DNA of 64,000 bases from a virus (IMGVR_UViG_2799112923_000002:64001-128000), one strand, 5' to 3'. Positions 1-64,000 are shown, numbered from the stretch's first letter. Numbers and translations: made by a program. The notes: generated by a model from the sequence alone, not told the origin.

Positions 1-168
1 ATAGAGCAGTTTAAATGGGAAAATAAAAAATATTACCATTTAATTAATAGTAGAATATTCGAATCGGATATTCCGATTAAAGAAAGATCTTATTCTAAAG
101 GAAGTTCGTACTTTAATTTAATAAAATTAGAGGATGAAACTAAAACAACCAGACGAAAAAGAGGATAA
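1..168 (+). CDS. 3' end of hypothetical protein (5'-partial)
   Basis: Frame 1 is open from position 1 (IEQFKWENKKYYHLINSRIF...) to TAA at 166-168. Confidence 0.5.
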   Translation: MEQFKWENKKYYHLINSRIFESDIPIKERSYSKGSSYFNLIKLEDETKTTRRKRG

Positions 169-649
169 GTTAAACATTTCAAAAGAATTATATTCTGCTT
201 TTTCTGATATATTACAAATTGAAGAGGATAAAATTGCTCTTATTAGTGCAGCAAAAACTTATTGTTTTATGCACGGAAACATGCAGTATAAGAAATTTTT
301 AAAATATTTATACGAATGTTGTATAAAAAATAAGAACTGTATTCTTGGATATTTGTATATGAATAATATGGCATCTCCAACTACAATGATTCATGGTATA
401 AATTTAGATGAGTTCGAATCATTTGAAAAAATCTTTGAACTTTTAGCTAGTGCCGAAGATGAATATGTAACTACTTTAAATAGTGCTATTAATGCAGCTT
501 TTAAAGATAATAATTGGAGTGCTTTTCAATATCTTTTAAAGAAACTTGATGGATTGGATCATTTATGTTGTAGAGCATTAGAAGCAGTTAAAAATAATTG
601 TGATTTATCAACATTAATACCATGCGAACAACATTCCTCGGACAAGTAG
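134..649 (+). CDS. Ferritin-like protein (divergent)
   Basis: 171 aa, helical. The segment EDEYVTTLNSAINAAFKDNNWSAFQYL resembles ferritin helices C-D. Confidence 0.55.
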   Translation: MKLKQPDEKEDKLNISKELYSAFSDILQIEEDKIALISAAKTYCFMHGNMQYKKFLKYLYECCIKNKNCILGYLYMNNMASPTTMIHGINLDEFESFEKIFELLASAEDEYVTTLNSAINAAFKDNNWSAFQYLLKKLDGLDHLCCRALEAVKNNCDLSTLIPCEQHSSDK

Positions 650-933
650 TTGCTACTCAGCCAGGTCAATATAAAATGTATGTTTTCAAAAATTTGGATG
701 AAAATGATAATAGTTTATTAAGATATTTTACTGTTACACAACCTCCAAATTGAAACGTAGAAGATTTAGATATTGGTGATACAGGTTTTGTAGAATGTGA
801 TTACGTTAACGCCGGAGATAAATACTATCAAGTTTCTACACAGGAAATGCAAACGTATAATTATACTGTTTGCTATTTATTAAATTTTATTAAACAAAAA
901 CCTAAAATAACAAATAAAGATTTTAAATTTTAA
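622..933 (+). CDS. Hypothetical protein, 103 aa (TGA=Trp)
   Basis: ATG at 622, one in-frame TGA at 751 (QPPNW), TAA at 931-933. Ends ...NKDFKF. Absent from the ORF track. Confidence 0.75.
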
Positions 934-938
934 AGATT

Positions 939-1790
939 ATGAGTGATTTACAAGAAAAGTTGGTACAAGCATTTGATGATAGGGACAAAGATATAAATCG
1001 TTGAACTTGAAAAATGTCAAATGGTACGGAAGTGAAAATGATGGATATGAAATATGATCAACTTCAACGTGCATATTGACATGTAATCGACATGCTTTAT
1101 AATAAAGATCCGTATCATCCTGGTGTACAACGAAAAAGAGATCAAGTAAGACGTATGTGGGATTGTGCTAATACAGAACTTTTACTACGTTATATTTTAC
1201 ATGAATGTCGAATAGATGTTCTTAAAACAAATAAAGACTTACTTGATTATATAAGTGCTCATAAGCGAGAGCATGGACTAAAAAATACAGATACTGTTGA
1301 TAAAATATTTACAGGTTTACCAGATGTATTTAGTTCTGTGACTATAGATATGCTGTTATCTGCATGTTTAGATTCATTGGATGCATTTAATCGTAGATTA
1401 ATTTCCGATAAGTTTATTTTATCTCTTGGTATTTGGCTATCTGAAGATGAAAAGAAAGATCTAACTGAATACGATTCTAATGGTAGATATCGTAGTAAGA
1501 AGGATGTTATCAAGGAAAGACTCTTCTTAAATAGTAATGTCGAATTAAGATTTAATCCGCAGGGTTTATCTTATAACGAATTCCGATCTATTGTTAGACT
1601 GGAAGGTCGTCCAAAATTTTCAAATATTCCAACAAATACTATTCTATTATTAAGAGATAAAATATTGCTTTTATTGGATCATGATTTTGAATATCATATT
1701 AATCGTTGAAATGTATTAAAAGATAAACTTGAAATGGTAGCAATGCAAAAGAATTTTACTCTAAAGCCTAGAGATGATAATCAAAGGTAA
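939..1790 (+). CDS. Hypothetical phage protein, 283 aa (TGA=Trp)
   Basis: ATG at 939 is in frame with track ORF 1092-1709 through TGA codons. Ends at TAA 1788-1790, overlapping the polB start. Confidence 0.8.
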
Positions 1791-3678
1791 AACTGCATTT
1801 GTTTACGATATTGAAGTATTTCCTAATTTTTTTAGTGTCGCTATTAAAAATACAGAGTCTGGCAATATTCGAACATTTCAAATTTCTGAATGAAAAAACG
1901 AAATTGGAGATATTGTTCAACTTTTTTTAAATCAAAAAATATATTGAGTTGGATATAATTCAATTCATTATGACGCTCCTATTATTTCTTATATCATAAT
2001 CAATTATAGGAAATTAGTGTCACAACCTGTTTGATTAACTAATCAAGAATTAAAACAGTTTAGTGATTTGATTATTGAATCTAAAACATCAGCATCATGA
2101 AAAAAATATAAATATGCAAATCTATTTTCAAATCTTGATTTATTAACTATGATGTTTGCAGAGAAATTAAGAGTTTCTTTGAAAGCGTTACAAGTTACAA
2201 TGGAATATAGAAATGTTGAAGAATATGATGGTGATTTTAACAGTTTTCTTCCTAAAGCTGATGTAGAGAAATTAATTAATTATAATATTAATGATATCTT
2301 ATCTACTGAAGAACTTTTAAACCGTTTAAAAGGTGAAATTGAGCTTCGATTAGGAATTGAACAAAATCTTGGAGTAAATGTTTTAAATCAAGATGGTGTT
2401 AATTTAGGTGTTGAAGTTATTAAAAATAGTTATCTTAGAGATACAGGAAAATCTTGATATGAAATAAAAGATTTAAGAAGTCCTTGTCATGAAGTAGATC
2501 TTAAAGACATTTATTTCAATTTTATAAAATTTGAAACACCTTTGTTTCAAGAATTTTATAAGGAACTTTATAATACACATATTAATCTTGATGCAGAAAA
2601 ACTTAAAAAGACTGCAGATAGATGAAAGAAAACACTTCGTGTTGGAGATCTCGAAATAACATATTCATTAGGTGGAATTCATACTAAAAATAAACCAGAA
2701 GTTTTTAGAACTGATGACTTTTGAATCATTATTGATTCAGATTGTGCATCAATGTATCCAAGTGCAATTATAAATTTTGGATTGTATCCTCAACATCTTG
2801 GTCCTGAATTTTTAAAGACTTATAAGAAAATTAGAGAGGATAGAATTAAAGCCAAACATAATGGTGATAAAGTTATGAATCAGACTTATAAGTTAGCACT
2901 TAATGGTATTTCTGGAATGTTACAAAATGAATATAGTTGATGTTATGATCCTAAGACTGTTATTAAATTACGATTAAATTGTCAATTAATGCTTTTAATG
3001 CTTACTGAAAAATTAATTAATTTAGGTTGCCGTATTGGACAATTAAATACAGATGGTATTATGTATATGGCTCCTAGAGATAAATTTGATGAAATAATGC
3101 AGGCATGTAAAGAATGGGAATCTGTAACTCAATTTCAATTAGAACATGAATATTTTGAAGTATTCTATCAATACGCTGTAAATGATTATATTGGAGTATA
3201 TAAAGGTTATTCTGAAACACATGATCCAAAACTTATTAAAACTAAAGGTATGTTTATTCAGGAACCTATTCTTGGAAAAGGTATGGCTCCACAAATTATT
3301 GCAGAAGCTTTAGTTCAATATTTTGTGAATAAAGTTCCAGTTAATGATACGTTATATGCTTGTAACGATATTAAAAAGTTTTTGACTTTTCAAAAAGTAA
3401 GTCGAGATTTTAGTGTTGAATATAATGGACAACTTTTGACGCATATAAATCGATATTATATGTCTATAAATGGACATAAAATTCGTAAATGTAAAGTTGA
3501 TACTAATGGAAAACGTTACGATTATGAAGATATGTGTGCAACATCTGGTGTTACATTATTTAATGTATTACAAGATATTTCTCCTAAAGACGCTAATATA
3601 AACTATAGTTGATATCGTAATGAAATTTATAAAATAATTTATGCTATAGAAGATAGCTTAAATCCTACATTATTTTAA
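1774..3678 (+). CDS. polB: Family B DNA polymerase, 634 aa (TGA=Trp)
   Basis: Exonuclease motifs YDIEVFPN and WVGYN..HYD; polymerase motifs DSDCASMYPS, YKLALNGISG and LNTDG. Nine in-frame TGA codons join three track fragments. Confidence 0.93.
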
Positions 3679-4592
3679 TGAAATTAGATTTAAACTTATT
3701 AAAAAGGGCGTTATCAATAAATCATCCATCTAAAAAAGAATGGCCAATGTTAACATTTATTATAAACGAGTGTTATAAAATTGGCGGATTGGATTTTGAA
3801 ATGGATGGCTATTGTAACATATTTATTACTAAAAACACATCTAATCCTGAATTCTTTCCTTGTGTAATTGCGCATACAGATCATGTTGTATCTTGTGATC
3901 ATAAGGAAGTTAGAATTAAGAATAATAAAATTTGGGGTAGAGATAAAATGACTGGAAAACAAACTGCTTTGGGTGCAGATGATACAAACGGTATATGTTG
4001 CGCGATACAGTTATTAAAAGAAATTCCAGATTTAAAAGTATGTTTTACAACTGAAGAAGAAGTTGGATTTTTAGGAGCAGATTATGCTTCTGATAATATA
4101 GATTTCTTCTACAATGTTTCTTATATGATTCAGGCAGATAGGCATGGTAGTTCTGATTTAATCACATATACAAATGGAATATATTCTGCTTCTGAATATT
4201 GGTTACAGGAAGTATCCGGAATAATGGCAGCTTTTCAATATAAAGAGGCTTATGGACTTGGTACAGATGTAGGAGTTCTTTCAGAACAATTACAATTATC
4301 TGGAGTAAATATTTCATGTGGCTACTATGATGAACATAAAGTAACGGAATATACTATTATTCCTGAACTTCAGAACTGTCTGAATTTTATGGAAGCTATT
4401 TTAAAAACAGTACCTATAGATAAACAATATACGATTAAAATCGATTATAAAGCTTATAATAGGTATTTTGATTATGAACCAGAGATGGAACCAAATGCTA
4501 AATTTGATGACTATCCAAGAGATTACGATTATATACCTTGTGACCATTGCGAGGAATATGATTGTATGAATTGTAAAAAATATCCACTATAA
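3678..4592 (+). CDS. Zn-dependent M20/M28-type peptidase
   Basis: Motifs AHTDHV, GADD, TEEEVG, QADRHG, TDVG and NISCGYYDEH; 304 aa. Confidence 0.85.
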   Translation: MKLDLNLLKRALSINHPSKKEWPMLTFIINECYKIGGLDFEMDGYCNIFITKNTSNPEFFPCVIAHTDHVVSCDHKEVRIKNNKIWGRDKMTGKQTALGADDTNGICCAIQLLKEIPDLKVCFTTEEEVGFLGADYASDNIDFFYNVSYMIQADRHGSSDLITYTNGIYSASEYWLQEVSGIMAAFQYKEAYGLGTDVGVLSEQLQLSGVNISCGYYDEHKVTEYTIIPELQNCLNFMEAILKTVPIDKQYTIKIDYKAYNRYFDYEPEMEPNAKFDDYPRDYDYIPCDHCEEYDCMNCKKYPL

Positions 4593-5810
4593 TGGATAGA
4601 ACTGAACGACAAAAACTTTGTTTAAAGCGATGACTAAATTGTGGAGGGAAAGCAAGCATTGAGGCTTGCACTGGGTTTCGGAAAAACTAGAGTCGCTTTA
4701 AACCTTATAGACGCTTTTACTAGTAAAAATCCAGAAGCACAAACATTAGTTGTAGTTCCAACACAAATTCTTAAAGATCAATGAATTCAACAAATTGATG
4801 AAAGAGGATTAGGACTAAATGCCAGAGTGGAAATTATTAATTCTGTTATTAAATTGGATTGGACTTGTGATCTTCTTATAATAGATGAGGCACATATTGC
4901 TGCAGCTGAACAGATGGTACAAGTTTTTAATAAAGTTTGTTACAAATTTATTCTTTGTTTAACTGGTACAATGGAACGTCTTGATATGAGACATCTTCTT
5001 ATTGAAAAGTTTGCTCCAATTTGTGATAGAGTTACAATACAAGAAGCTGAACAAAATGGTTGAGTTTCTCCACATAAAGAATATTTGGTTTTACTTAATG
5101 TAGATCTTACAGAATATAATGAATGAACTCGTAAATTTAATGCGTATTTCTCATATTTTAATTTTGATTTCGCTTTAGCTATGAAAGTTGCAACTGATCC
5201 AATTGCTCGTAATCAATGAGCGAAACGGATGGGATTGGATTCTAAAAAAACTGCTGCAATTGCATTGGATTGGATGAGAATGATGAAAAAACGAAAAGAT
5301 TTTGTTATGAATCATCCTAAAAAGATTGAAATTGCAAGAAAGATTTTGGAAGCTCGCCCAGATAAAAAAGCAATTACTTTTTCTGCTACAATTAATACAG
5401 CAGAACAAATAGGTATTGGTGAAACTATTCATTCTCAAAAGAAAGCAAAAGAAAATAAAGAAATCTTAGATCGATTTAATGCACAGGAATGTGGTGTATT
5501 AAATACTTCTAAATCCGCAGATCAAGGATTGGATTTAAAAGGTATAAATCTAGAAGTCATTTTACATACAGATTCATCTAAAATTCGTAAAGTACAAAGA
5601 GTAGGACGAAGTATTAGATATGAATATGGAAAAACTACTGAAATTTTTACATTGGTTATTGCTGGAACACAAGAAGTAAAATGATTTACTAATAGTAAAG
5701 CATCTAAAGTAACCACAATTACTGAAGAACAGTTAGATCGAGTTTTAGCTGGAGAAAACATTGAAACTCGAGAAAGAAATTATTCCGAAAACCTAAAATT
5801 TAGATTTTAA
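4592..5810 (+). CDS. Superfamily 2 (DEAH) helicase, about 405 aa; needs a +1 frameshift at 4676-4679
   Basis: The N-terminus MDRTERQ...IEACTGF (frame of 4592) joins GKTRVA...LIIDEAH...LTGT...QRVGRSIR in the +1 frame. The zero frame stops at TAG 4688. Confidence 0.8.
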
Positions 5811-5877: not shown

Positions 5878-6474
5878 TTGGAACTTGATACAATATTAAA
5901 TCTAATGATTTCATATAGACTTACTGCCGATGAACTCTTGTTGGTTTATTTAACATTTCTTGCACAAGAGGAAGAAAATCATCCTGAATTTTTAGCAAAA
6001 TGATTTTCTAATGGCGGTGGATCTAAATTGAAAGGGTTATTTGAATCCTTAAAAGAAAAAGGTATTATTCATAAAGATTATAATCCAGAATCATATAATC
6101 CCGATGATATTGAGTTTAATAAAAACTTTTTAAAAGGATGGATTAAAAATTCTGGAGAACTTGGAAAAGAATTATTTGATGCTTATCCGCCCTTTATTAC
6201 AGTTCAGGGTAAGACATATCCACTTAAAAATATAGCAAAGAAATTTAATTCTTTGGATGATTTTTTCTTTCACTATAGTAGTCAAATAAAACACAATCCT
6301 GAAAAACATAAAGAAATTATGGAGATTTTGGATTGAGCTAAAGCAAATAATAAAATTAATAGTGGCATTTTAGAATTTGTTTGTAGTAATGGATGAGATA
6401 GTTTAAAGTATCTTAGAGATCATCCACAAGAAGGTCAAGTGGAGAGTACATTTAATGTGTATGAAAGTGCCTAA
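5878..6474 (+). CDS. Hypothetical protein upstream of DnaB (possible wHTH initiator or helicase loader), 198 aa
   Basis: TTG start at 5878, TGA read-through, TAA at 6472-6474 coupled to the dnaB ATG. The function is inferred from position only. Confidence 0.65.
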
Positions 6475-7589
6475 TGACAGATCTTGAACTTCTTTGAACT
6501 CTTATAGATAAAGGTAAAAAAGGTGATAATATAGGAATTTCTACCGGATTAAGTAAATTAGATAAACTAATTGGAGGTATTCAACCACATAGATATTATT
6601 TGTGTGGTGCAAGTTCGTCTGTTGGTAAAACTGCATTAATATTATATATAATGTATAATATTTTAAAAAACGAGGACAAAAAACGTCCAGTTTATTTTCA
6701 ATATTATAGTTTGGAAATTGGTGCAGATGTGTTACTAGCAAAATTAATGGGACTATATTGTGCAGAAGAATTTGGAGTATATTTAACAATTAATGATATT
6801 TTATCATTTGAACATCCTATTTCAGATAAAGATTATGAATGTTTGAAACAGGCCAAAAAATGACTTTCTGCAATTTCAGAATATATTGATATAGTTGATA
6901 CAAATGTTAGTGCAGATGTTTTATATGCACATACTTGTAAATTTGCAGAAACTATTGGACGTTTTGAAATTATAAATGGAAAGAAAGTGTTTATTCCAGA
7001 TAATCCTAATGCTCTAATAATCGGTGTAATAGATCACTTTGCATTAATGAATGTACAAGCAGGAAGAACGTTAAAACAAGAAATTGATTTAGCATCTTCT
7101 TATATGGTAACACTTAAAAGAAAGTTACCATTATCGTGATTTGCATTAATGCAGCAAAATAGAGCATCTTCTGATATTGAACGTCGTAAATTAGATCTTA
7201 GTGAGCCAGGTCTTAATGATTTAAAAGATAGTGGTTCTCCAAGTCAGGATTCCGATGTTGTTATGCAATTGTTCTATCCATTTAGAGAAAAATTAGCTAC
7301 ATATCGTGGTTATAGAATTCTTGGAGATAATGGACTTGGACAAAATCATAGAAGTTTGATATTAAGTAAGAACAGATATGGTATTGCAAATCAAGTGATA
7401 AATCTTGGTTTTTATGGTTCTGTTGGATGGTGAACTGAATTACCAGCTCCAGAAAAAATTACTGATTATACACAATTTCATTTTGAAGAAAATAATATAC
7501 CTTGTAAAAACAAAAAAGAAATGTTAAAAATAGATGATTCTACTCCACAACGAGTAGATGAGAAAAAGCCTATAAAATTTAGTTTTTAA
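6474..7589 (+). CDS. dnaB: DnaB-like replicative helicase, 371 aa (TGA=Trp)
   Basis: GISTGLSKLDKLIGG, Walker A GASSSVGKT, YSLE, IDH, QQNR, DLKDSG..SQDSDVV and KNRYG. Confidence 0.9.
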
Positions 7590-9578: not shown

Positions 9579-10583
9579 ATGAAATTTTCATTAGAACCGA
9601 TTACAATAACAAAGGAACTTATTTTAAATAGAGTTTCTGAAGAACAGATTATGGAGCATTATTTAGGCGTTAGAATACAAAAAGGCCTATTTAGAAGCCC
9701 CCTTAGAAATGATAGAATGCCAACAGCGTCTTTTTATAAAAATGGACGAGGTAGGTTAATTATGAAAGATTTTTCTGGTGCCTTTTCTGGCGATTGTTTT
9801 TCGGTTGTAATGGAGAAATTCCAATGTAGTTATTATACAGCTCTTCAAATAATAGCAAATGATTTCGGAATTATTCAACGTAAGGATATGCAAAAACATA
9901 AACCAAAAATTGAATATTCCGGAATCAAATTTGAAGAAAAAGAATCTGCAAAAATTCAAATAAAAACTAGAGAGTTTACAGATAAAGAACTTGAATGATG
10001 ACTGCGTTATGGAATCACCAAACAAACACTTGAAAAATTTAGGGTTTATCCTGTAGATGCAGTTTGATTAAACGATGAATTATTTTATCAAAATATTGAT
10101 TCTAAACCAGTATTTGGATATTATGGTGGAATAAAAAATGGAATTGAACAGTGGCGAATATATTTTCCAGGAAGAAAAGCTGGAAAATTTATTTCTAATT
10201 GAAAACAAGATCAAATTCAAGGAGCTCATATGCTTTCAAAAGATGGAGGAGATTATGTAATTGTTACTAAATCTTTAAAAGATGTTATGGCCTTATACGA
10301 ATTTGGTATACCAGCTATAGCACCTTGTTCCGAAAATTTATTTGTTACCAAATCACAGTACGAACGATTAAAAAATCATTATAAACATATATATGTTTTA
10401 TATGATAACGATTTACCAGGTGTTCAAGCTATGCGTAAAATACGCAAACAATTTCCAGAAGTAACTTGTTTAATGTTACATAGAGAAGATGCAAAAGATT
10501 TTTCTGACTATAGAAAATCATTTGGATACAGAAAAACTTTGGAATTAATTGAAAAAGCAAAAGAATATTATGGTCAAACGTAA
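9579..10583 (+). CDS. dnaG: DNA primase (DnaG-like TOPRIM), 334 aa (TGA=Trp)
   Basis: N-terminal FRSPLRND...KDF.G.F.GDCF; TOPRIM VTKSLKDVMAL...YDNDLPG...KDFSDY. Tandem TGA-TGA reads as ELEWW. Confidence 0.88.
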
Positions 10584-11033: not shown

Positions 11034-11228
11034 ATGAAACAATTTAAAGTTGCTGTTAGTACTCCAGAAAGAGCGATAATTATTCCAATGGAGTATAACG
11101 ATGAGCAAGATACTATAGAAATAAAAGAATTACAGGTTGAACCTGTTCCTGATAAAGATGAGGATATTTCTAAAGATCCTGCGTTTTTTATTGTACAGAA
11201 AATATTAAAAGCGTTTTATAATGAGTAA
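11034..11228 (+). CDS. Hypothetical protein, 64 aa
   Basis: ATG after the terminator; the stop overlaps the next start. Confidence 0.7.
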   Translation: MKQFKVAVSTPERAIIIPMEYNDEQDTIEIKELQVEPVPDKDEDISKDPAFFIVQKILKAFYNE

Positions 11229-12687
11229 TTTATATCCTTTTTTAAGTGGAACTTTAAGAGCGATTATATCGGAACTTGTTAAAAAAGGCGATCCTATTGC
11301 AAAAGAAATTAGTGATATTGATGCAAATGTTGAAGATTTATTAAAAATTTACACATATATTCCTAATGGATTACGTGATAAAATTGTTGACAAAATAATT
11401 CGTCCATCTTTAACAGAAGAAGTATCAATGCTTTCTGTTAGAGTTGGAGGAGACGATCCAAATGTATCATTTCTCCCAAAAGATAAAGAACCGGAATATA
11501 CAGGAGATGGTACATGGGCAAGAAAGAATCGACAAGAAGGAAAACCTGCAAAAATCTTTCAAAAAGCGTTAGTAAGACAATTTAAACAACGTGAGTGGGA
11601 AACATTTTCTAATGCTTTTAAATCTGAGGTTTGTAATTGTAATAATTTTCAATTAGTATCTGGAGAAGATATTCGTTATTGGTATCACGAAAATAATTAT
11701 TACGAATGTAAAGGTACTCTTGGGAATAGTTGTATGCGATATGATTCAGCTCAAAGTTATTTTGATATATATGTCGATAATGCAAAAATGCTTATCACTA
11801 AAAAAGCTGGAAAATTAACTGGCAGAGCAATCGTATGGGAAATCGATGAGAACACTACAATTCTTGATCGAGTTTATACATGCTTTGATTATCTTTATAA
11901 TTGTTTCATTGATTATGCTAAAGAGCACAAATGGATAATTCGTGAAGATAATTCGTTATTACATACTGGCGAAGAACAATTTTGGTTAACTCCAGATGAC
12001 AATTATCTTCATGTAAAACATTTACCACTCAAGATTAAATTGAAGGAAAGATATGATGAATTTCCTTATGTAGATTCGTTTAGGTATTATAATGAAGATC
12101 ATAACTATATAACTACGAATGTAGATGATTGTGCATTAGATAGTACAGATGGAGATTATTGTCGTTGCACATATACTTGTGATCGTTGTGGACGAACATT
12201 CTTTGGATATGATGATGATATGCCTGACGAACTTCATTGGTCTGAATGGTATGGTGGATATTTATGTGACGACTGTTGTTATTGGTCGGATATATTAGAC
12301 GATTATGCTCCATATGATGAACCAAATGTACGCGTTTATATATCAAGCTGTGAAAGTGATCGAGTACCAACAGCATATATAAAAGATTCCATTGTCACTA
12401 ATCCAGAAGAAGAAGCTAAATGCTCAGATCCTGTTGTAATTATAGATGGTACATATTATTATTTAAACGATTGTAAGGATTTTATTGCATTCGATTTAGA
12501 TAAAAATCAATATACTATTATTCCTGAATCGGATACAGAGATGGAGGAATCAGTAACAGATATAGAAACACAACCTATAGTAGTACATCCTATAGAATTA
12601 CATCCTATAGAGATATATCCTACGGTTGCTGTAAGCTCAACTTCTGAAAATTGATGGGATTTGGTATCCAATACATATAGTAGATAA
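11221..12687 (+). CDS. Hypothetical phage protein (GNSCMRY/GRAIVW motifs, Cys-rich C-terminal part)
   Basis: 477 aa to TGA 12652, or 488 aa to TAA 12685-12687 if TGA=Trp. CDRCG and CDDCC clusters suggest Zn binding. Confidence 0.75.
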
Positions 12688-12698
12688 ATAATAAAAAT

Positions 12699-13451
12699 AT
12701 GCGCTACGATTTAATACCGATTAGAGGTATAGAAGAAGTACATAAAGTACTAAATTCAAAATTAGACAAACATGCTGTAAGTGAATGGAAAGATGGTCTT
12801 AAATGGACAGAAGTTATATCTTCACTTAAAAAACACTTATTAGCATTTGAAAAAGGTGAAGATTTTACACCTGAAGGAAATTTATCAATTGCAGAGGTTG
12901 CTTCTAACGCACTAATTTTAGCAGAGTATTATTCAATTAATCCTGCTGGAGATGATCGTCAATTTTTACCAATAACTAAACCAATTGTTGCATTAGATAT
13001 TGATGACGTTTGTTTAGATTTCATTGGAGGATTTGAACAGAAAACCGGAATCAAATGTAATGATTATTGGAATAGTACATACGAAATGCGTGCAAAATTA
13101 GAAGAACTCTCTACAGATAAAGAGTTTTGGACAACTTTGAAAACAAAACATATGCCGAGTTTTGAACCAGATCTTTATATTACTAGTAGAAGCATTCCAG
13201 TTGAATGGACTAAAGAAAATTTGGAAAAGAACGGATTTCCTTGTGCTCCTGTTTACTGTGTTCCTTGGAACGAAAGTAAACTTGAATTAATGAAAAAATA
13301 TAATGTTTCTATTCTTATCGACGATAAGTTTAGTAATTATAAAGATGCTGTAGATAACGGTATATTTTGCTATCTTATGGATGCACCACATAATAAATAT
13401 TATAATGTGGGACATCGTAGAATTTATGATTTAAATCTTTCTATAAAATAA
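12699..13451 (+). CDS. dATP/dGTP diphosphohydrolase-like (DUF5664-like) domain fused to a HAD 5'-nucleotidase domain
   Basis: N-terminal WKDG.KW...SL.KHL.AF..GED; C-terminal HAD motifs ALDIDDV, ITSR and LIDD. Confidence 0.7.
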   Translation: MRYDLIPIRGIEEVHKVLNSKLDKHAVSEWKDGLKWTEVISSLKKHLLAFEKGEDFTPEGNLSIAEVASNALILAEYYSINPAGDDRQFLPITKPIVALDIDDVCLDFIGGFEQKTGIKCNDYWNSTYEMRAKLEELSTDKEFWTTLKTKHMPSFEPDLYITSRSIPVEWTKENLEKNGFPCAPVYCVPWNESKLELMKKYNVSILIDDKFSNYKDAVDNGIFCYLMDAPHNKYYNVGHRRIYDLNLSIK

Positions 13452-18661: not shown

Positions 18662-18846
18662 AAACGCAGTGGGGACATTAAACCGCTTTTAATTGACTCG
18701 AAACTCCTATAATTAGGACAACGAGGCGCAAGCAGAGAAATCGTGCAGCGTGAGAGACTAAATAAAGCGGCTGCTTAATTGCAGATGCAATAGTCCGAAC
18801 TCTATGGTAACATAGAGAGAAAAATTGAAAAATTTTTCCATCTAAA

Positions 18847-18878
18847 TTTGTTTTTCTCGGAAAATATTTTTATATTTG
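18847..18878 (+). promoter_or_regulatory. Intron-internal Bacteroidota-type promoter
   Basis: TTTG (18847-18850), 20 nt, TATATTTG (18871-18878), 45 nt upstream of the HNH ATG. Confidence 0.8.
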
Positions 18879-18923
18879 TATTGTAATATATGAAAATAAA
18901 AATTATAATTAAAATGTAAAAAT

Positions 18924-52000: not shown

Positions 52001-52774
52001 TAATATAGTTTTTCCAATACTTTTATCTAAACCATCACTATCGAAAAAATCTCATTTATTAATAGGCGTTCCATCTACAGTAAGTGTATCGGAAACTCTA
52101 AGAACTTCTTTCCCATAAGGATCTCTATTGCCAAGTTTTTCATAAAAAGGATCTCCATTTTCATTTAATTTAAAATCACCTTTTCTATGTTGTACAGTTC
52201 TTCCATTTTCTTGATGCACACCGTCTTCATCATATGTGGCAAGAACCATTGTTGGAGCAAAAATAGATTTAAAAAATCCATGATTGTTAGGAGTTCATCC
52301 TAATCCGTTTCCATTTTCATCCTGCGCTTCACTATCTTGAGCGATCTCTCTCATACTAAATACAGGAGCACCAATTGATCCAATTCCCGTGATTCCTTTT
52401 GCTCTACGTCCAAAATCACCACTACCACGATAAATGATAGCGGTGACATCCTTTACATTTGATTTAAAAGGTTGTGTTCAATCTAAAGGATCTTTATCCA
52501 AACTTTCAATCAAATGTTTTTCATAATCATCGTTTGAAAATTTATTATATGAATTAGATACGCTATCATAAAAATTTTGAAATTTAGATTCATCAAAATT
52601 ACCTAAATCGTTTTTAAATAAATCATTATTTTTTACCGCATCTAAATTTTTATAATAATCTGCATCTTTTAAACCGGTATTATCTGCTGTAACACCATGT
52701 AATAACATATCTTCATATGTAGCATTAGGTTGATTCAGCATTACCGCAAACATATCATTCTTTTTATTTGCCAT
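43028..52774 (-). CDS. Giant virion (ejection) protein with embedded superfamily 1 helicase domain, 3248 aa
   Basis: QGGTGAGKTS (about 48062-48091), IFVDEAQ, YGDKKQ, TSREVQGREYD and YTLMGRSK. Hydrophobic Gly/Ala-rich segments in the N-terminal part. Confidence 0.82.
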
Positions 52775-52775
52775 A

Positions 52776-54659
52776 TTAGGAATCAAAATTAGTTATAAAT
52801 TGATCTTGCATTATATTGGATTGTACAATATGACTTAAATATGCTTTTTCTGGAACGTTTCTAAATGTTTCTTTACCGTAGAACTGATCATTAGACATTA
52901 GGAAGCCCTGTGTTTCATCTAAAATAGGAACATATACGTTTCCATAATAAAAATCATTTTTCTTTGCATCACCGTAATTATGAGATTTTGTCTCTTTCTT
53001 TGTTGGATCAAGTTTTCCGTATTGCACTAATTTATTATATTCATCTTTCACTGCACCAGCTTCCATTCTAGATAAATGTTCTAAGAATGGTTTTGATTGT
53101 TCTTCAATTTTGATTAAATCTCTATTTGCATATCCAGCAAAAGACATGAAAAATCCCATTTTTTCTGGTTTAAACTGTAAAGTATTATTTTCAGTTATGA
53201 TTACATCATCTGAAATAGATCCGAGTTTATCACGTATTTCTAATTGTGTAATACCAGGATGATCTTTAATATATCTTTGTACTTCGTTAAATTTAACAAG
53301 TGCTGAAAAATCTGGAGTAGTATAACCATTATCTGAAATCTTTTTTGGTAATGCTACACGGGTTAATTGACTACTACCATCTCATACAATAGCACTCTTC
53401 TGATTTGGATTAATTACTTGATTTCCAAATGTAATTTGTCCAAGATTGGCTCCTCGCAAACCAAATACTTTCGGAAGTAATACTTCAAGATTGTTTCTAG
53501 TAAGTCCGTTTTTATCATCATCTGATAAAGGTCCTGCATTTCACGCAGCAATCGCCATTTGAGCTGTATCTGCTACACGTTGTGCAATAGGACTTATATA
53601 AGCTGTAGTTTGTTGTAAATGACCTCTGTTTATTTCGTCTGGAAGTGTACCTTGAGTTAATTGTTCTGTAGAACTTCCACCTTTCTTTCCAGTAGTATAT
53701 GGATCATATTCTGTTGCAGTTTTATCAAAATCAACTGTTTTGGAATAACTTGGATAATGATATAATGCTTGTAAGATTAGTCTTGTAACATCCTTTTCAT
53801 TTTTTGGATCTCCACCTTCAGCTGCAGTTTTAGCAATTAATAAATTTCTAGCATTAGGTGTCATTCCTTCGTATAAAAAGTTTATAGCAGCATTAACATC
53901 ACGCAACTGATCTTCAGTTTTAAATTTATAATATCCATCGGGACCAGCTTGATTTAATAAAGCAAGACCTCTATTAACAGAATCATCTTTAGTTGTATAA
54001 CCACCTAATTCATCTGTACCAAAAGCTTTTATACTAGTACGAAGATAATCCGTAATTGATTTCATACCGATAGTATTTTGAAGATCGTTTAAAATACTAG
54101 TATCAAAAGCTAAGCCATCTTCATGTTCTCTATAATAGAGAAGTTCATCATTTGTTAAAATTCGATATTTTTCAGAATCATAATCATTCGGTTTTATTCT
54201 AACAATATTTCCATCTTCGTTAAGTGCATACATTAATCCAGTACTAGTAATGGCTACTTCTGAACCTGCAGCTTCAGATGTCATTTGTTGAACAGCTTTA
54301 TCCCGTAAGTTATTATTGTACTTAACATCATTTACAAGTTGCTGAACTTTCATTAAATCCGATAAATCATAATCATCCTCTTCTCCTCCAAAAATACTGT
54401 AATTACTTAAAGATTGTGCTTTAGTTAAAAATGTATTTGCAGCTTTTAATAAAGTACTTACATCACTAGGCATTCCGTTTTCTTTAAGTAAATCAATTAT
54501 TTCTTTTTTCATTGTACCAGAAATCTTTTCTGGCGAACTTCCCGATGAAGCGGTTCCACCAGAAGTAGTAGAAGTACTCTCTTGAAGAGAACCGGCTTGA
54601 GCAGGAAGATAGGGGGTGTATACCACACCCCCCACTTGATACTTCCTTTTAATGTACAT
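52776..54659 (-). CDS. Putative virion/ejection protein, 627 aa
   Basis: Starts MYIKRKYQVGG; two track ORFs joined through TGA. Confidence 0.75.
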
Positions 54660-57600
54660 TTATTGGTTTTGTTTGTAATAACAGTTTAATAATCGCATCA
54701 TTCAGCTGTTTAACTGCTTGTGCAGAGTCTTTTGTATTTTGTAATAATAATTCAGGATATGGATCTCTTGAATATGTTACAGCAGAACGTTTGCCTTCGG
54801 AAGAAACTTTACCACCTGTCTTCAGAATACCTCTTTTAAACATTGGAGATAACTGAGCATATAAACCTGAATAACCTAAACCTTGTTGCTTTAATGCAAG
54901 TTGTGATTTAATTGTTGCAAGAGCTCTCTGTGCATTTTCACTATTTGGATCGTCTTTATATAGACGATTAAAGTTATCCATTTCTGTGCGATACCATTCA
55001 TCTAATGCACCAAGATCTTTATTATACGCTTTAGCCGCTTCTAATTGATTTCTCATTTGCCAATTACGATTATATCAATCTTGGGTAGCGTATGCAGCTT
55101 GATCAAAGAATTTAGATTTTTCAGCAATATTAGCATTCTTTGCCTGAACGTCTTCAATACCGTGTTGCCAACGAAGCTGTCCATTTTGATTAGCTACATT
55201 AACATGTCTCAACTGTTCATTGTTCCAGAAATCTTGTAATCCAGCTAAATATTTGCCAAATTCTTCAGAATCCGCAAGTGTACCTTGCATTTCATAATTA
55301 AATGCATCTTGTTGACGCTGACGTTGCATTAAATCGTTTTGCATAGCATCAGACGTTACTGGTTTAGACATTCTCGCCTGATTTGCCAACGCTCTATATG
55401 CCTCACCTCTACCACTAGAAATAAATCTTGGAGTATTCAATAAAGCATCTTGCATCTGATAATGAGGACGATTTAAGAAATTCTCTAATTGCTTATCACT
55501 CTGCTTCATTGCATATAATGAGCGAGCTCAATTCATAGGAACATTTAAATCAGGATTTCATTTTTGTTCAGAGAATGTACCTTGAATATAAGGATTTTGT
55601 TTTCCTTCAGATTCTGTACCTTGAATTGATTCTGTTCCTGTAGTTTTAACAGTTGACTGAACAGGTCGTCCTGTCATAGGATTTGTAACTTTGAAACTTG
55701 TTGTAGAACTATTTAATGAAGTTGGTGAAGATGGTATAAATGTCGTTGTATTTCCAGTAGGAACCGTATATAAAGGATCTGTTTTAAACTTAAATCCGGT
55801 AGATAAATCTGGATTTAAAATAGGTCCATTAAACTTTAATCCAGATTGTCCTTTTTCTATCTTACCACCTTTCTTAAATAAAGGTTGCATAACTGCACCA
55901 GAAGGTTGTTGATCTTCATATCCAAGAAGCTTTAATGGAATAATTGGCTGTGGTAATGCTATACCTTGCCTTGGTACAGCAGTAGTAGCGGTTCTCGAAG
56001 TATAAGCAGTATAATTTGCACGACCTGGATTTTGTATCATTCCTGGACCATTTAACTCTGTAAAACCTCCAGGAAGCATCTCCTGACTAAATTGTCGGCC
56101 TTTGAATTCAGATAAAGGTATCTCTCTACTAACAACTTGTCCTTTTGTTCTAAATACCCTAGGTTTTGTTGGATAAACGTCAGTATCCGTTCTAGTTAAT
56201 TCGTAAGCTTTTGTTGTAGTTCGAGTTGGTCTTTCTCCTCGTAACTGTGCATTATACGTACTTTGTTTATCTCCAACACCATACCATCAATCGTGTCATT
56301 TATTACCGTTCGCTTGCTCAGTAGTTGTATTCGTGTTTGTTTTTTTCTTTACATTTACTACAATATCTCCATCCTTACCACGTATTTGTTGTCAAATTGT
56401 TTTCTTTTGTTTAAGTAAGGATTCTGCAGCAGCTGCAATATCTTTATCAGATGCGTTAGGTGCCTTTGCTTTTATAGCTTCACGTAAGGCTTTAGGTTGA
56501 TCGGAAGCAGATAAAACCTTTTTAATTGCTGCATCATCAAGTGTAATATCTGAATCCCCAATCTTAAAGTTTTCTGAATATGCCTTTGTCTTAGTTGTCT
56601 TTGTACTTCTTCCAAATCCACCAGATTTTCCGATTCCAACACCAGCAGTAATAGCATTTACAAGCATATCAACATCACGAGTTGTAAACTTTTGTCCAGA
56701 AGCAATTTTCTTTGCGGTTTCTACAACTCCAGCACCAAGACCATAAACAGATGCAGCTTTGATAATTGTAGGTAATGCGTTTTTGACAGCTTTTGGAATT
56801 CTAGCAAGTTTACCCATACCACCAAGTACAGGTAGTAACATTGTAGCATCCATTCCAAGATTTAATAAATAATTAGGAATAGCGCCCTTTGTTCCTCTAC
56901 TTAAATCGGCATATAATCTAGCAGTAGAACCTGTTGCACCAGTAGCAACTGATGCAATATTAGCACCTGGAATAAAAGCAGTAGTAAGAGAACCTAAATC
57001 TGCTGCAAGTGCTACCATATCAGCTGTATCAGCATCAGTTCAATTTTTACCTCCAATTTCTGCAACACTAGCTGCATTTTTAGGATTTGTATTCGTAGTA
57101 TTTACTATTCTTTCTGTAACACCAGTTGCAGTTTTAGCACCTCCCGCAATACCACCTTTTTGATCTTTTAATACACCACCGTTTTTCTCAAATTGTGGAG
57201 CGTTTACAAGCATATTATTTCTACGATCAATTCTAGATCCTTTTCTATTATTTTTAATAGCTTCTACAAGTTGTTTAATTTCCTCTTCAGAAAAGCCCAT
57301 TTTTCTGAATTGATTAGATAAACTGCTAAAGTTTCAAAATTCATTATCACCTTGTCTAAATCCAGACTGAACTAATGTAGATAGCGCAGTCATGAAATTC
57401 TTCTTATTTTGTGCATTACCTATAACACGAGACAATCAACTATTTTCTCCATTTTGTTTTATATTGTTCATGAGTATTTGGGCAATCTCTTTTGGAAGAA
57501 CAATATCTTGATTGTCTGTTCCGTTTGCATAAATCTGAGGCATATGAAGAATCACATCTTCGTCCGGATTTTCTATACTTCTATAAAATCTAAATCCAGT

Positions 57601-59109
57601 AGCTTGTTTATTCTTATCAAAAAGATCTTCATAATATCTATTATTGTATGCACCATTATTTTTGCCAACAGTACGCTTATATGTATTTAAACCAGTTTCT
57701 CTTGCTTGTCCATTTTCTAATTGAATAACTTCTTCAGGAGTTAATTCTCTTTCTAAACCACCTCGATTATTTAAAAGAGCGTACTTATAATTATATCTAC
57801 GATAAGGGCCTTCTAATGAATCGTCGCCAAGATTTACATATTGAATTAATTGTTGGTCGTCAGTCATTCCATTAGTAGTAGCAAGTCCAGTTAAATCAGA
57901 AAAACGATAATTTGGGTTTGCGGAAAGGAATGTAGAATATTGATCTGGATTTAAATAAATTGGATTTTCCCGAGCAAGATCTGTGAAGCGGGTTAAAATT
58001 TGATTATCTGCACCAGTTCAATTACCTGATTTCATCATGGAATTAAACCCTCCATCTGCATTTAATATTCTCGCTAATGTAGGATTATCTAATGCATATA
58101 AGCGATTATTATAAAGGGTATAATTTCTATAAGGATCAAATGATCCATCTGCACCATAACGACTGTTATAAAAGTCATCATTAAACCAAATATTCCTTCC
58201 TTCTAAATCTCCAAGATTTCATCCTCAAGATTCACCATCATTTAAAGATATAGAACCATCATCGTTTATATGAGCTCTACTTCCTAAAAGATCAGCAAGT
58301 CCTCCATGTCCTGCATTATTTCATTTAAGTCTATCCGATGCTGTTAGTCCAGATGCATCAACACTGTCACTATCACTAGTATCAGGTTTAGCAATAAAGA
58401 AATTATTTAAAAATTTAATATCGTCTTCTCCTAGTTGGTTGTTTTTTGCTCTAGTTTTAATTTGATCAAGTGTATCTGCTCAACGATCTTTACTTTGATT
58501 ATATAAACCTTGTAAAGCTGACATGTGTTCCGGCGTATATTGTGAAGCAAGTTTGTATATTTTCTTTCCAGCTTCAGGATCACTTAAATAAGCGGTCATA
58601 TCATCTAAACGTTGCATCAGACCTGCATTTTTTGCAGAATTTTCTGATCAAACTTTAGTTCCGTCTTTATCTATATAATCAAATCATGCTGTATCTCCAT
58701 AAATATCTTTTAGATTAGTAGGAGTTTCTTCAGTTGCTTTAGGAACTTGATAATGAAAGGATCCTATAGCAGAAAGTGCATTTCTAAAACGATGTGCATC
58801 TGTATCAAATTGTGCTTCTCACCATTTTCTTCATCTACTAGAATTAGCACCACGTAAATTATTTTGCCGATCAGTAATTCCACTTCAATCACCATACATT
58901 CCAGAAATAGTATTAGCAGCACTATCATATCGTAAATCCTGTCCATCTTGTAGAGCATTACTTAAACCAGCAAGAGTTTGAGCATCTGTTCCAGCAGTAT
59001 TTCTTAAGTGTGTTGTTAATGCATTGATGAATTCTGGTGTTGCTTTATATTTGATTCCATCAATGGTTAAAGAACCACCTGATTGTAATTTTGTTATAAC
59101 TTGACTCAT
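54649..59109 (-). CDS. Putative virion/ejection protein, 1486 aa
   Basis: Starts MSQVITKLQSGG; seven track ORFs in one frame; hydrophobic Gly/Ala-rich region about 56650-57020. Confidence 0.8.
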
Positions 59110-59727: not shown

Positions 59728-60735
59728 CTATACATATTCTGCCGGACGATTGTCTTGTGCCTTTATTTCATTAAACACGTAACGTCCTAATGCTTTATAA
59801 TCTTTATCTAATTGAGATATAGCCGCTTTCTTTGCTTTTCTTAAGATTACTTCCGTACTCTTGCGACTAAATATTCTACAACCAGATTCTATTTCACCTT
59901 GTACTTCTCCATTAGAACCATAAATATATAATTTATTAACCTTTAATTCAGGATGTTGTTTTTCATCAAAATCATCCTCCTCTTCTTCAGGTTCTGCGTC
60001 TGGTTCATCATGTAAAGCAAGATTAGTATAAGTACCTTGTGGTATTTGCTCTGATTGATTTAACTCTATAACCCAGTAAATAGGTTCTGATTCTTCTTTT
60101 ATAAGTTTTTCAGAGAGCGGTTCTCCGTTATGTGCTGAAATAACAACTCCATCTTTATTTATAAAAAGTATTCTTAAAGCAATTGTTGTATCTTTCATTC
60201 AAAATGCTAGATGATTCTGAGGATTATCCGAATAATCAAATATTGCACCTTCATCAGAATCCATATCATCTACATTTTTAAGTCCGGTTTCTTTTTCTTC
60301 TTCTGAATATAGATATAAAAGTTTATATGTTTTATTTCCAATAGTTACTGGAACAATGTCAAGATCTGCTTCAAATTGGCCACCTTCTCCAAAAGTTTTA
60401 ATTCCGTTTTCTGATAGATAATCTTCAATCATTTCAATTATAAGATCAATCCTTCCAGAATTAATTAACTGCATAATATCTCCTCCTGCTCATTTAGATA
60501 GCTCTTCAACAATCTCTGGATGGCTTTGTAAAACATATAATATCTTTTGAATAGGATTACCAACTTGATCGATTACCGAATTAGCAGCAATGTTTTCTAA
60601 ATCGGATTTTTGTAAACCGTCTGACTTGATATCTGCCATAGCAATAGCTGCAGTAGAGCCGCCTTTACTTGAAGGATCTTCTTTTAAATCTTGAAGAAGA
60701 CTTAATAAAATTGCATTTATTGATTTATTATCCAT
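59728..60735 (-). CDS. DUF192-domain fusion protein, 335 aa (TGA=Trp)
   Basis: Three track ORFs in one frame. GLKNVDDMDSDEGAIFDY...AFW(TGA)MKDTTIALRILFINKDGVV fits the DUF192 pattern. Confidence 0.75.
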
Positions 60736-60736
60736 A

Positions 60737-61966
60737 TTATACCTCCTCAGCTAATTGTCCAGTATTATCTTGAGTATTTTCAAGAATCTCACTTACAAGA
60801 AGTTTTCCAGCTTCTATCATTGCTTCTTCAGATCCATCTTTCATTAATTCTTCAATCTTTTTTGTAAGTTCTAAACGAAGAATTAATTCTTCTTTTTCAA
60901 TTTCAGCTACTTGTTCTCCATTAGCGTCTACTACAGGAATACCTTTACGAGTAACATCTTCTAAATCAGGATTTACATCATTTAAATGGTGTAATCTTGC
61001 ATGAAGAGCTCCTTCAGGTAATAGATTTGTATCTGTTCCAATTACTCCACCTTTCTGTAATTTTCTTGCTTCTAATATTTTCTGTAATTCCTTTTTAGAT
61101 AGGATTTTCATTCCGTTCTTTCCAACAGCATACATTTGATAATTAGTTCCAGCGTAACGATTTAAATTCTGTTGAGCAATATCTCTTCCATAATCGGATT
61201 GTTTACGAAGACTATTTGTTCTTCCTATCTCGTTTACTACATCAACATTATCGTTAGATTCATCAATAAACTGATTCATCTTATTTCTTCCAATTCCAAA
61301 TAAAGTACGTTTCCCACTTATCTTATTAGCTGCATCAATATCTTTTTGTACACCAGAATATCCTGCTAATACAGATTCGCCTTCTGCATTAAGACCCTGC
61401 GCTTTATTTGTTTTTCCTGGAGAAAATGCTGCCATAACCAGACTATTACCAGGGATTGCATTCATCGCATTATTAAGAAATCTTGCACCACCAGAAACAC
61501 CAGCTCGACTACTTGCATCTTTATCGAGATCGTCAATATGAAATCCTGTAGCATCACCAATAGCATCTACAACTTTAGTTGCAGCGCCTATTGCCATAGC
61601 TATTGGATTTCCAGAATTAATTGCAGCAGAAGAAATACTATCTCTGATTCCAAGTGATTGAGCAGATACTGTATCATTCATTTGTGTAAAAGCTGGAGAA
61701 ATGGTATTTATCCCTTGAGCAATCGGACTTATAATATTGGAATAATTATTTAAACCTCCCTGTAACAAATTAAATCAATTATTAGATGTATTTTGTTTCG
61801 CTTGTTTTTGTTGTCCTGCTCTATAATCGGCTTCACCTGCTAAACCAGGTGCAATTTGTGCTACAGCTGTACTAATTAAAGGTGGCATGTTTTTCTTTTG
61901 AGCAGTAACTATTGCAGGAGGGCCATCTACTCTATATTTTCCATTATTTAAATTAGGATCTGCCAT
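60737..61966 (-). CDS. Putative virion protein, 409 aa (TGA=Trp)
   Basis: Two track ORFs joined; Gly/Ala-rich, with internal RKLQKGG. Confidence 0.75.
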
Positions 61967-61968
61967 AA

Positions 61969-64000
61969 CTAACTATAACTTATATTTTCAAATGTTGTAA
62001 CGCCATTAATTATGGCTAATCTATTAGGAATATTGGGGCCATTATAATAACGTAATCTAATTTTAATCCATTTATCTCTAAGTTTAGCGGATACAAATTC
62101 ATCCGATTCTTTAAAGATTTTAACATCTGGATCTTTCAAATTAGCGTTATATCTCAATGGTTCTATATTTGTATATCAATAATCCTCTTTATATTGTATA
62201 TTACCTCGTCTTCTTCCATATGTTTCAACGTTCTTGCAGATTTGTTTTATAAGTAATGTATATTCATCTAATACAGCATCATAATTTACACCTGCGTTAT
62301 AAAACATTGGTTTAAAATTAGTTATATCAAAATTATCTTTAGAGAATAGATCTGGTTGTTTTCTATACGGAATATCTTTTCCATATTTTCCATAAATCTC
62401 ATAATTATCGTGATATATTCTTGCTTTATTAAATAAATAGTCATCACCTATAAATTCAAATTCTATTTCTGTAGGTTGAACATTATTTGAAATAATAACT
62501 AAGTTTTCAAAAATTTTATGTAAACCTTGAGGTGTATTTACTACAAATTCGAATTCAAATGGATAATGTTTATTATATCAATAATTTGGAATAAATTGTG
62601 TATCTATTCCTGTTCTACCATGTCTATAAATTCCAAATTCATTATATGGATGTAATGGAATTGAATAAAATGTATTATTGATATTTCCAGAAAACAATGG
62701 AACTCAACTATATCTAGTTACTCACAATGCTTGTCTTTCATTATAGCAAAGATTTCATTCTTTTGAATCACTCTCATTTGTATGATAGAATGTAAACATT
62801 ATATCACCTTTGTAATTATTATAATGAGATTTAACATTTGTTACACCAAGACAAACATCTCGAGTCAATCCTAAATTAATATTATCATTTAAGAAACGTT
62901 GAAGTTTTAAATCAGATAACATTTCTAATCCGTTCTTATCTGTATATCTTCAAATTTTCTTTGCAGAAGTATCAACGCCATAAATTCCAATAGGGGTTCT
63001 AATTATAGAATCCTGCCACATAGAACCATAATCTTGAGATATAATAGACAATTGTTCTGGAAGAACACCATGCCCGTAAATATGAATTGTTTGTTCTGTA
63101 GTAGTTTGCATTAACGCCTTTTCATTTATAGGGATCATAGCCAATCCATGTTCAAACACACAGAATAAATTATTACCTCAAGAAACTAATTTAACAATAG
63201 CTCCATATTGTTTTGTATAATCGTGATAAGATGCTCCCTGAAAAACACGATATCCGTTTGTAAACGAATCATTAACACTTACATTACTGAACATAATTCT
63301 TGTTGAAAATTCATTTTTATCAAATGGAGTGTCTTGTTTAATTGTATTACGTTTTCTACCTACAGTGGCATTGTAACCATCATTTAAAAGATGCGAATCT
63401 TCTAATTTAGTTGCGGTAGATGCACCAATTAAAGGGTAAAAACTTCTAGCTGTTCCCATCAATGCCATCTCAGAAGTGTTAAATGTGTCTTCTGAGCGAA
63501 GTCCGAGATTAGAATTTGATAAGCATTTAAACGTAACTCAATGACCTAACGATACGGTATTTAAATCAGTAAGATTGATTTCATCTCATTGTGTGTAATC
63601 ATTTTCTTCTCCTTCTGGAATTTCGCCATATGCTACATTATTATATCCCCTATAATATTTTCTTCAACAATCTTCTTTTACTATCTTATCTGCAATAGGA
63701 GCGGTAGAATCAATAAAATTACGTAACATTCTAACTGTTACTGTGTTAGTGAAACAATCCCCTCTATAAACCTCTATATTTGATTCTTCTAATGGATGTC
63801 TATCAGATACTGCATAATATTCTGCATAATTGTTTACTCTTACAATTATATCGTTTCTAAAATTGTCATCGTGTTTGTTACGAATATTATATAAATAATT
63901 TGGTTGTACTCCGTGTTCTTTAGTATCAGAGATAGTTCCAATAAATGGAGTATATTTTCCTCTTACAATGTTATCTTCTGCGTAGTAATTAATATTGGAG
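61969..64000 (-). CDS. Tail stabilization/muzzle-like protein, C-terminal part (5'-partial)
   Basis: Frame is open from the window edge to TAG 61969 with TGA=Trp. YRGDCF, GVDTSAKKIW and FEFEFVVN...HKIFENL; position in the tail module. Confidence 0.65.

Follow-up and report, generated by a model that had tools for sequence, protein, structure and literature searches.

How is the codon TGA read in the 64,000-nucleotide stretch IMGVR_UViG_2799112923_000002:64001-128000, where it recurs in frame inside genes for DNA replication, nucleotide metabolism and virion proteins? This whole stretch, referred to below as the window, represents bases 64001-128000 of a single viral contig of 166,911 bp. A first-pass annotation had proposed from the sequence that TGA is reassigned to tryptophan (Trp, W) on both strands. 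We favour an account in which TGA is reassigned to Trp in this phage, a phage-encoded tRNA(UCA) reads it, a block of standard-code genes comes first and the tryptophanyl-tRNA synthetase (TrpRS) of the host charges the tRNA, and we give this account as a whole a probability of about 0.9.

The contig starts and ends with the same 99 bases, and CheckV rated it as 100% complete with direct terminal repeats. The GC content was 27-34%, and the GC skew switched sign near window position 27,000, which is also the point where gene orientation flips. Pfam and PHROG matches showed that the plus-strand half (about 130-26,900) carries replication and nucleotide-metabolism genes, among them genes for an AAA_24 ATPase, a dUTPase, an ATP-dependent ligase, a ThyX-like protein and a dNMP kinase. 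In the minus-strand half are genes for very large proteins (1624, 3542, 3248 and 1486 amino acids, aa), for a DUF192 protein and for a Crassvirus muzzle-domain protein. The muzzle domain marks a Crassvirales-specific virion protein (Pfam crAss_MUZ, E 4.5e-28, above the cut-off), and the nearest named relatives of the family-B DNA polymerase (PolB) were all crAss-like phages with 42-44% identity, including CrAssphage cr4_1 (Suoliviridae) at 43.8%. The genes for capsid, portal and terminase are located outside the window. Near-identical DNA was present in bovine-gut metagenomes of about ten studies. The phage is Crassvirales-related and comes from the cattle gut, a placement that covers its affinity to Crassvirales and not the identity of a Bacteroidota host. 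The plus strand of the window carries the replication module, and the minus strand carries a portion of the virion module.

TGA as a sense codon and the amino acid it encodes

Under translation table 11 the window was broken into short open reading frames (ORFs), whereas genes tiled the window when TGA was read as sense. With TGA re-called as sense, stop-free frames of at least 150 aa covered 0.87-1.00 of each 8-kb window bin, up from 0.18-0.88, and 0.815 of the whole genome, up from 0.50; the four giant minus-strand ORFs opened as well. The 42 window genes of at least 80 aa contained 179 in-frame TGA and 89 TGG codons, with TGA in 31 of the genes. They ended at TAA (38 genes) or TAG (four genes), and six junctions were 1-nt TAATG overlaps in which the end coordinate of one gene is the start of the next, as anticipated by the first-pass annotation, which had described genes ending at TAA or TAG joined to the next start. 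There were 388 in-frame TGA sites genome-wide, and in each module 1.1-1.6% of the codons were TGA or TGG, as is normal for Trp. The in-frame TGAs had no bias in the +4 or -1 context (p = 0.26), with neighbouring bases as for TGG and other codons, the pattern of a genuine sense codon. A bovine-gut DNA contig obtained independently in another study, with 18 differences over 2.9 kb, retained all nine TGA codons of PolB, so these are not assembly errors. Contigs from RNA libraries covered no more than short stretches of PolB and adjacent genes, and one retained the TGA at 2623-2625; since DNA carry-over is possible in such libraries, they allow no conclusion on transcription.

All five motifs that had first drawn attention to TGA carried it at the Trp position: IY-TGA-VGYN in PolB (aa 58), ELE-TGA-TGA in the primase (aa 140-141), KYL-TGA in the NrdG-like protein, K-TGA-VAR in the HNH/AP2 protein and F-TGA-MKD in the DUF192 protein on the minus strand. 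The family names given to these proteins were borne out by PHROG (DNA polymerase and primase) and by the AP2/HNH, Fer4_12 and DUF192 domains, and the tally of nine TGA against one TGG in PolB was correct. The presence of TGA in PolB, the helicases, the primase and NrdD/G likewise agreed with the proposal that recoding extends beyond late genes.

The public protein database already contains full-length translations of relatives, and because counting W in such translations would be circular, the comparison was made at the codon level. Among 77 polymerase homologs from IMG/VR, 57 had no in-frame TGA and spelt Trp as TGG, and these 57 were used as the PolB reference. Opposite the PolB TGAs they had W in 57 of 57 sequences at aa 109 and in 56 of 57 at aa 228. 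The other TGA columns had F or W (aa 389), F (aa 58), Y (aa 284 and 613), or mixed A/W/L, R and E. Gly accounted for three of 1660 residues in these columns, and the single TGG column of PolB was TGA in 11 of 20 recoded relatives. When 44 TGA sites from 15 genes were compared with standard-code homologs, the BLOSUM62 sums, averaged per site, were +205 for W, +78 for Y and +34 for F, against -82 for C, -83 for S and -96 for G, and W was the most frequent homolog residue at 21 of the 44 sites. An RNase H gene lies shortly before the window, and its TGA sites aligned with Trp residues of a solved RNase H (3h08). The 1486-aa minus-strand protein had no match in five standard-code crAss-like genomes, so the exchange between TGA and TGG in recoded relatives was used instead: in a relative with 81% identity (G001), its 19 TGA positions were TGG at ten, TGA at eight and TAT at one. 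Homolog columns on the plus strand and TGG exchange on the minus strand thus both support Trp, and Gly, which would have spoken against it, was rare in the alignments. On this comparative evidence TGA is best read as a fully reassigned Trp codon and not as a codon for Gly, Ser, Cys or selenocysteine (Sec) or as a site of leaky termination.

The decoding tRNA, the standard-code block and the TGA-free genes

The first-pass annotation had argued that the phage must supply a UCA-anticodon tRNA and had seen no decoder within the window. A tRNA search of the window was indeed blank, and the predicted tRNA was found outside it, at genome position 59870-59962, which is 4.0-4.1 kb before window base 1. 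This tRNA(UCA) scored 56 bits against the Rfam tRNA model and was also called by ARAGORN, which labelled it SeC. The complete genome had 25 predicted tRNA genes, with 21 of them inside a block at 27.4-62.7 kb, and tRNA(UCA) lies at the 3′ end of this block. The suggested genome search for a decoder therefore succeeded for the tRNA and failed for a release factor: the complete genome had no gene for release factor 1 (RF1), release factor 2 (RF2) or TrpRS, as judged from the RF-1, PCRF and class Ib synthetase domains. The relatives G001, G002, G004 and G005 had an ordinary tRNA(UCA) of 72-77 nt, unrelated in sequence to the 93-nt tRNA of the present phage, and G004 had an ochre-anticodon UUA tRNA (L096:5959-6033) beside it. 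No tRNA(UCA) was found in the examined part of the genome of relative G003, though its PolB has eight in-frame TGAs.

A tRNA with the amber anticodon CUA was also present (genome 41394-41466, L083:1394-1466; 22.5 kb before window base 1), and recoding of TAG was considered and rejected. Reading through TAG added no coding cover and merged only four chance pairs of ORFs, so TAG is a stop despite the tRNA(CUA). TAG ended 26 of 159 genes of at least 80 aa, and the next in-frame TAA followed at a median of 9.5 codons, compared to 14 after TAA stops. As a side observation, the window encodes a YqeY-like protein with a tRNA-binding type of domain, and this in a phage that switches its code; that the protein helps to handle the suppressor tRNA is pure speculation.

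The plus-strand block upstream of the window, about 35 kb long (about 27.4-62.7 kb of the genome), uses the standard code with TGA as a stop. Its 47 genes of at least 80 aa contained 122 TGG and eight TGA codons. Five of the eight TGAs were located 0-12 codons ahead of a TAA or TAG stop, two of them as a TGA-TAA tandem, so TGA evidently serves there as a stop with a back-up. The tandem ends two consecutive genes (genome 48122-49470) and so keeps termination secure whether or not the suppressor tRNA has yet been produced. Auxiliary genes in the block code for an SPFH protein, phosphoesterases, PcfJ, an amidoligase/amidotransferase set, an IMPDH-like protein, a GroEL-like chaperonin and a NUDIX protein.

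Recoding over the entire window had been suggested by the first-pass annotation. This is true for most genes but not uniformly so, because five plus-strand genes in the replication module are TGA-free in relatives as well (Table 1). In up to 19 recoded relatives, with 37-84% protein identity, these five genes had no TGA and 120 TGG codons, compared to 360 TGA and 154 TGG codons in PolB, the helicases, the primase and their neighbours. This conserved avoidance of TGA argues for selection, most simply for a need to synthesize the five proteins before or without the suppressor, and it argues against a recent import of the genes. With both the block and the five genes outside the recoding, the idea of a temporal switch survives, with the switch placed before replication and not before the late genes.

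The tRNA(UCA) has an unusual form. It is 93 nt long with a 7/5 acceptor/T branch, a 4-bp D stem and a long variable arm. Its acceptor stem has A1-U72, G2-C71, G3-C70 and G5-C68 followed by G73, and such features are bacterial Trp identity elements (PMC9976931). The variable arm is a 17-nt hairpin, and its 7-nt loop, G-U-C-C-A-A-A, is a canonical anticodon loop showing CCA, the normal Trp anticodon. A pattern search of IMG/VR that required both loops found 49 such tRNAs. When the requirement for the second loop was dropped, there were 33 matches, and every tRNA among them had UCCAA in a 7-nt arm loop. The present copy has the features of this class, namely the UCA arm, the 5-7-5 hairpin with the loop N-U-C-C-A-A-A and the Trp-type acceptor stem, and the loop-closing pair of its arm is a C.A mismatch. 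The hairpin is joined by single-stranded linkers of 2-7 nt, with 4-6 nt in most cases. Among 42 unique sequences, the 5-bp stem of the arm was 89.5% paired compared to 46.7% after shuffling (maximum 58%), and there were 4-6 pair types per stem position while the loop was invariant. A BLAST search with the 93-nt tRNA against five related genomes gave short fragments only. The code 4 test applied near other long-arm tRNAs gave a median gain of 0.13 against 0.013 in controls and was clear at some loci only, a weak test because the long-arm tRNAs sit in standard-code blocks. The literature searched had no account of a tRNA-Trp whose variable arm is long or anticodon-like. We tentatively suggest that the arm might present host TrpRS with the CCA anticodon determinants that were lost by the change of C34 to U, while the UCA arm would decode UGA.

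Proposed mechanism and competing explanations

In the proposed sequence of events, the standard-code block would be translated first under the standard code of the host, and the suppressor tRNA(UCA) would accumulate from the 3′ end of the block. Host TrpRS would then charge this tRNA, as the phage encodes neither a TrpRS nor a release factor, and the long variable arm could supply the anticodon identity element for TrpRS that disappeared when C34 became U. The TGA-containing replication and virion genes would now become translatable, and the conserved TGA-free genes of the replication module could be produced regardless of the suppressor. That the two-anticodon-arm tRNA is charged via its CCA arm, with the TGA-free genes then marking a translation-level timing programme that begins before DNA replication, is a bolder proposal, and we regard it as somewhat short of an even chance.

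Several points weigh against the reassignment of TGA and the proposed order of events. Insertion of Trp at TGA stands on comparative evidence, and TGA is one transition away from TGG, so the match to W is partly of mutational origin; the retention of TGA at invariant W sites nevertheless argues for Trp. By simple arithmetic, half of the chains from an ORF with 19-28 TGAs are finished only if about 97-98% of ribosomes read through at each site, and nothing found here accounts for outcompeting the RF2 of the host: the genome had neither a release-factor gene nor an evident antagonist of RF2. The relatives with an ordinary tRNA(UCA) are recoded too, which shows that recoding can do without the extra arm. 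A long variable arm and G73 are also features used by seryl-tRNA synthetase (SerRS; PMC9976931), and some mischarging with Ser is therefore possible. Finally, the timing of expression is read from codon usage only.

The phage could instead share the code of its host, if this were a Mollicute or another code 4 bacterium in which TGA already means Trp, and there would be no code switch at all. TGA would then be an ordinary sense codon without context bias, as was observed, and cattle-gut samples could contain such hosts. We nevertheless consider it very unlikely, because the 35-kb block has eight TGAs against 122 TGGs and genes whose TGA stops have a TAA behind them, five genes in the window have stayed free of TGA across relatives, and the phage carries its own tRNA(UCA). 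The muzzle domain and the crAss-like PolB also point to Crassvirales, and the known hosts of this group use the standard code according to two sources (PMC10136315; Borges et al., bioRxiv 10.1101/2021.08.26.457843). At the other extreme, the TGAs might be real stops in pseudogene fragments, assembly errors or sites of minority, context-dependent read-through, as the many short ORFs under table 11 would suggest. This deserves hardly any credence: frames free of TAA and TAG for up to 10.6 kb are not chance in DNA of 29% GC, both an independent sample and relatives retain the TGAs, there is no context signature, and the genes hit are essential ones (PolB, primase and muzzle protein).

The remaining alternatives accept TGA as sense and differ in the amino acid. 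A reading as Ser, or as an ambiguous mixture of Ser and Trp, would follow if SerRS recognized the class-II-like arm and G73 of the 93-nt tRNA. We find this highly improbable, given that Ser made up two of about 730 residues opposite TGA in standard-code homologs, its BLOSUM sum was -83 compared to +205 for Trp, and TGA occupies invariant Trp positions of PolB; in addition, the hairpin sits on single-stranded linkers and the acceptor is of the Trp type with A1-U72. Gly, as in code 25 of Gracilibacteria/Absconditabacteria and their phages, or Cys or Sec has a negligible probability. Of the roughly 730 residues aligned to TGA, six were Gly (BLOSUM sum -96) and six were Cys (-82). The SeC label from ARAGORN, which arose from the UCA anticodon together with the long arm, speaks for Sec. 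Bacterial tRNA-Sec, however, has an 8/5 branch and a 6-bp D stem, unlike the 7/5 branch and 4-bp D stem found here, and 388 in-frame sites without context bias are incompatible with insertion that depends on a selenocysteine insertion sequence (SECIS).

Gene content and comparison with known systems

The features of the window are listed in Table 1. PHROG and Pfam searches with the giant minus-strand ORFs gave almost no match; the adjacent 3542- and 3248-aa ORFs are presumably giant virion or ejected proteins of the crAss type. An Rfam search of the split nrdD (18500-19800) gave no match and thus no group I intron, and none was found in the window at the gathering threshold, so nrdD is either a split gene or contains an unrecognised intron. 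A search of the PDB with the NrdG-like protein gave no match.

Table 1. Features of the window, with positions counted from its first base
Feature	Position	Strand	Evidence and codon counts
TGA-free 171-aa protein, function unassigned	134..649	+	Conserved TGA-free; ten relatives: 0 TGA, 7 TGG
Family-B DNA polymerase (PolB), 634 aa	1774..3678	+	PHROG 1252, E 2.8e-138; 9 TGA, 1 TGG
M28/M42-like peptidase	3678..4592	+	Conserved TGA-free (3 TGG); Pfam matches weak, all below curated cut-offs; six relatives: 0 TGA, 21 TGG
SF2 helicase (ResIII/Helicase_C)	4641..5810	+	Pfam; 5 TGA; relatives 68 TGA vs 12 TGG
DnaB-like helicase	6474..7589	+	Pfam DnaB_C, E 5.4e-24; 4 TGA; relatives 38 TGA vs 14 TGG
DNA primase (Toprim)	9579..10583	+	PHROG 12622, E 8.5e-45; 4 TGA including the tandem pair in ELE-TGA-TGA
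Conserved TGA-free island	11221..14872	+	21 TGG; homologs in recoded relatives: 0 TGA, 92 TGG
Island member, 477/488-aa protein	11221-12687	+	Conserved TGA-free in relatives; single TGA 11 codons ahead of TAA, probably the true stop
Island member, DUF550-like dNTP diphosphohydrolase	12699-13451	+	Conserved TGA-free; DUF550-type dATP/dGTP diphosphohydrolase N-terminal domain, E 1.3e-13
Island member, 121-aa ORF	inside 11221..14872	+	
Island member, PD-(D/E)XK DUF3799 protein	13817-14872	+	Conserved TGA-free
Anaerobic ribonucleotide reductase region	16913..20604	+	NrdD parts, HNH-AP2 ORF and NrdG-like activase (Pfam)
NrdD N-part	16913-18712	+	Pfam NRDD, profile positions 6-415; 4 TGA
HNH-AP2 homing-endonuclease-like ORF	18924-19643	+	Pfam HNH_3/AP2; 1 TGA; between the NrdD parts
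NrdD C-part	19649-20125	+	Pfam NRDD, profile positions 415-562; 2 TGA
NrdG-like activase	20119-20604	+	Pfam Fer4_12; 3 TGA
YqeY-like protein	23474-23992	+	Pfam, E 2.2e-10; PHROG 'tRNA amidotransferase'; 0 TGA, 2 TGG
1624-aa protein	27535..32409	-	22 TGA; open only with TGA as sense; weak PD-(D/E)XK match below Pfam cut-off
3542-aa protein	32412..43040	-	19 TGA; no family match
3248-aa protein	43028..52774	-	28 TGA; internal AAA/helicase-like P-loop near aa 1556-1771
1486-aa protein	54649..59109	-	19 TGA
DUF192-domain protein	59728..60735	-	Pfam DUF192, E 1.8e-12; 2 TGA (F-TGA-MKD)
Crassvirus muzzle-like virion protein	61969..64000, continues beyond window end	-	Pfam crAss_MUZ, E 4.5e-28; PHROG virion structural protein; 1510 aa and 16 TGA in all

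For annotation, these results mean that standard-code gene calling shreds this phage, and that code 4 restores PolB, the primase, NrdD/G and virion proteins of 1500-3500 aa. Recoding extends to the replication machinery while neighbouring genes stay TGA-free across diverged relatives, and the TGA-free genes offer a testable map of the genes that the phage would need before the suppressor tRNA acts. The presence of as many as 28 TGAs in one ORF implies that reassignment is nearly complete although the phage has no release factor or synthetase of its own, and this sharpens the question of how host RF2 is overcome and how the UCA tRNA is charged efficiently. On the matter of charging, the decoy-arm tRNA just outside the window offers a candidate answer; it exceeds the routine for such phages and might also serve as a part for genetic-code engineering. 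If the proposal is true, it would be a natural tRNA design with two anticodon arms, without a match in the searchable literature.

The tRNA-Trp(UCA) of Mycoplasma and mitochondria, and the opal suppressors of E. coli that were derived from tRNA-Trp, are class I tRNAs of about 75 nt. The tRNA(UCA) of the present phage shares with them the Trp-type acceptor stem and a UCA anticodon reading UGA, but in contrast to them it adds a CCA-bearing, anticodon-like hairpin at the variable arm.

Borges et al., Mgcod and the work on the zeta crAss-like phage Lera have already described phages recoded in this way, and the present phage is an added member of the TGA-to-Trp recoded crAss-like phages. It resembles the phages of Borges et al. 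(bioRxiv 10.1101/2021.08.26.457843) in its low GC content, in-frame TGA at Trp positions and tRNA(UCA), in having the parts for the code change in standard code, and in its presumed reliance on host TrpRS, as was proposed for most of those phages. Unlike the Jade-type phages in that study, it has no RF1/TrpRS 'code change module'. Lera and ct1yV3 were described as phages of 160-180 kb with about 25 tRNAs, including TCA and CTA suppressor tRNAs, and with opal suppression in signature genes such as RNA polymerase and helicase but no amber recoding (PMC12386605). By these described features the present genome is similar, with 166.9 kb, 25 tRNAs including UCA and CUA, and TAG as a stop. Lera and ct1yV3 are, however, listed as polA phages whereas the present phage has PolB, and TGA was found in 41 ORFs of Lera compared to most genes here (31 of 42 in the window). 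The structure of the suppressor tRNAs is not described in PMC12386605.

The crAss-like dual coding in the abstract of Mgcod (bioRxiv 10.1101/2022.06.29.495998) is alike in having a standard-code block and a recoded remainder, and the order of events suggested here matches the model of Borges et al. and, as far as that abstract describes it, the block-wise coding of Mgcod. Compared to the same abstract, the present phage also has individual genes, conserved as TGA-free, that lie among recoded neighbours. Borges et al. stressed structural and lysis genes, whereas here PolB, the helicases, the primase and NrdD/G are recoded too, and the avoidance of TGA is gene-specific and conserved within the replication module. 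This conserved gene-by-gene avoidance of TGA inside the replication module goes beyond what is routine for such phages.

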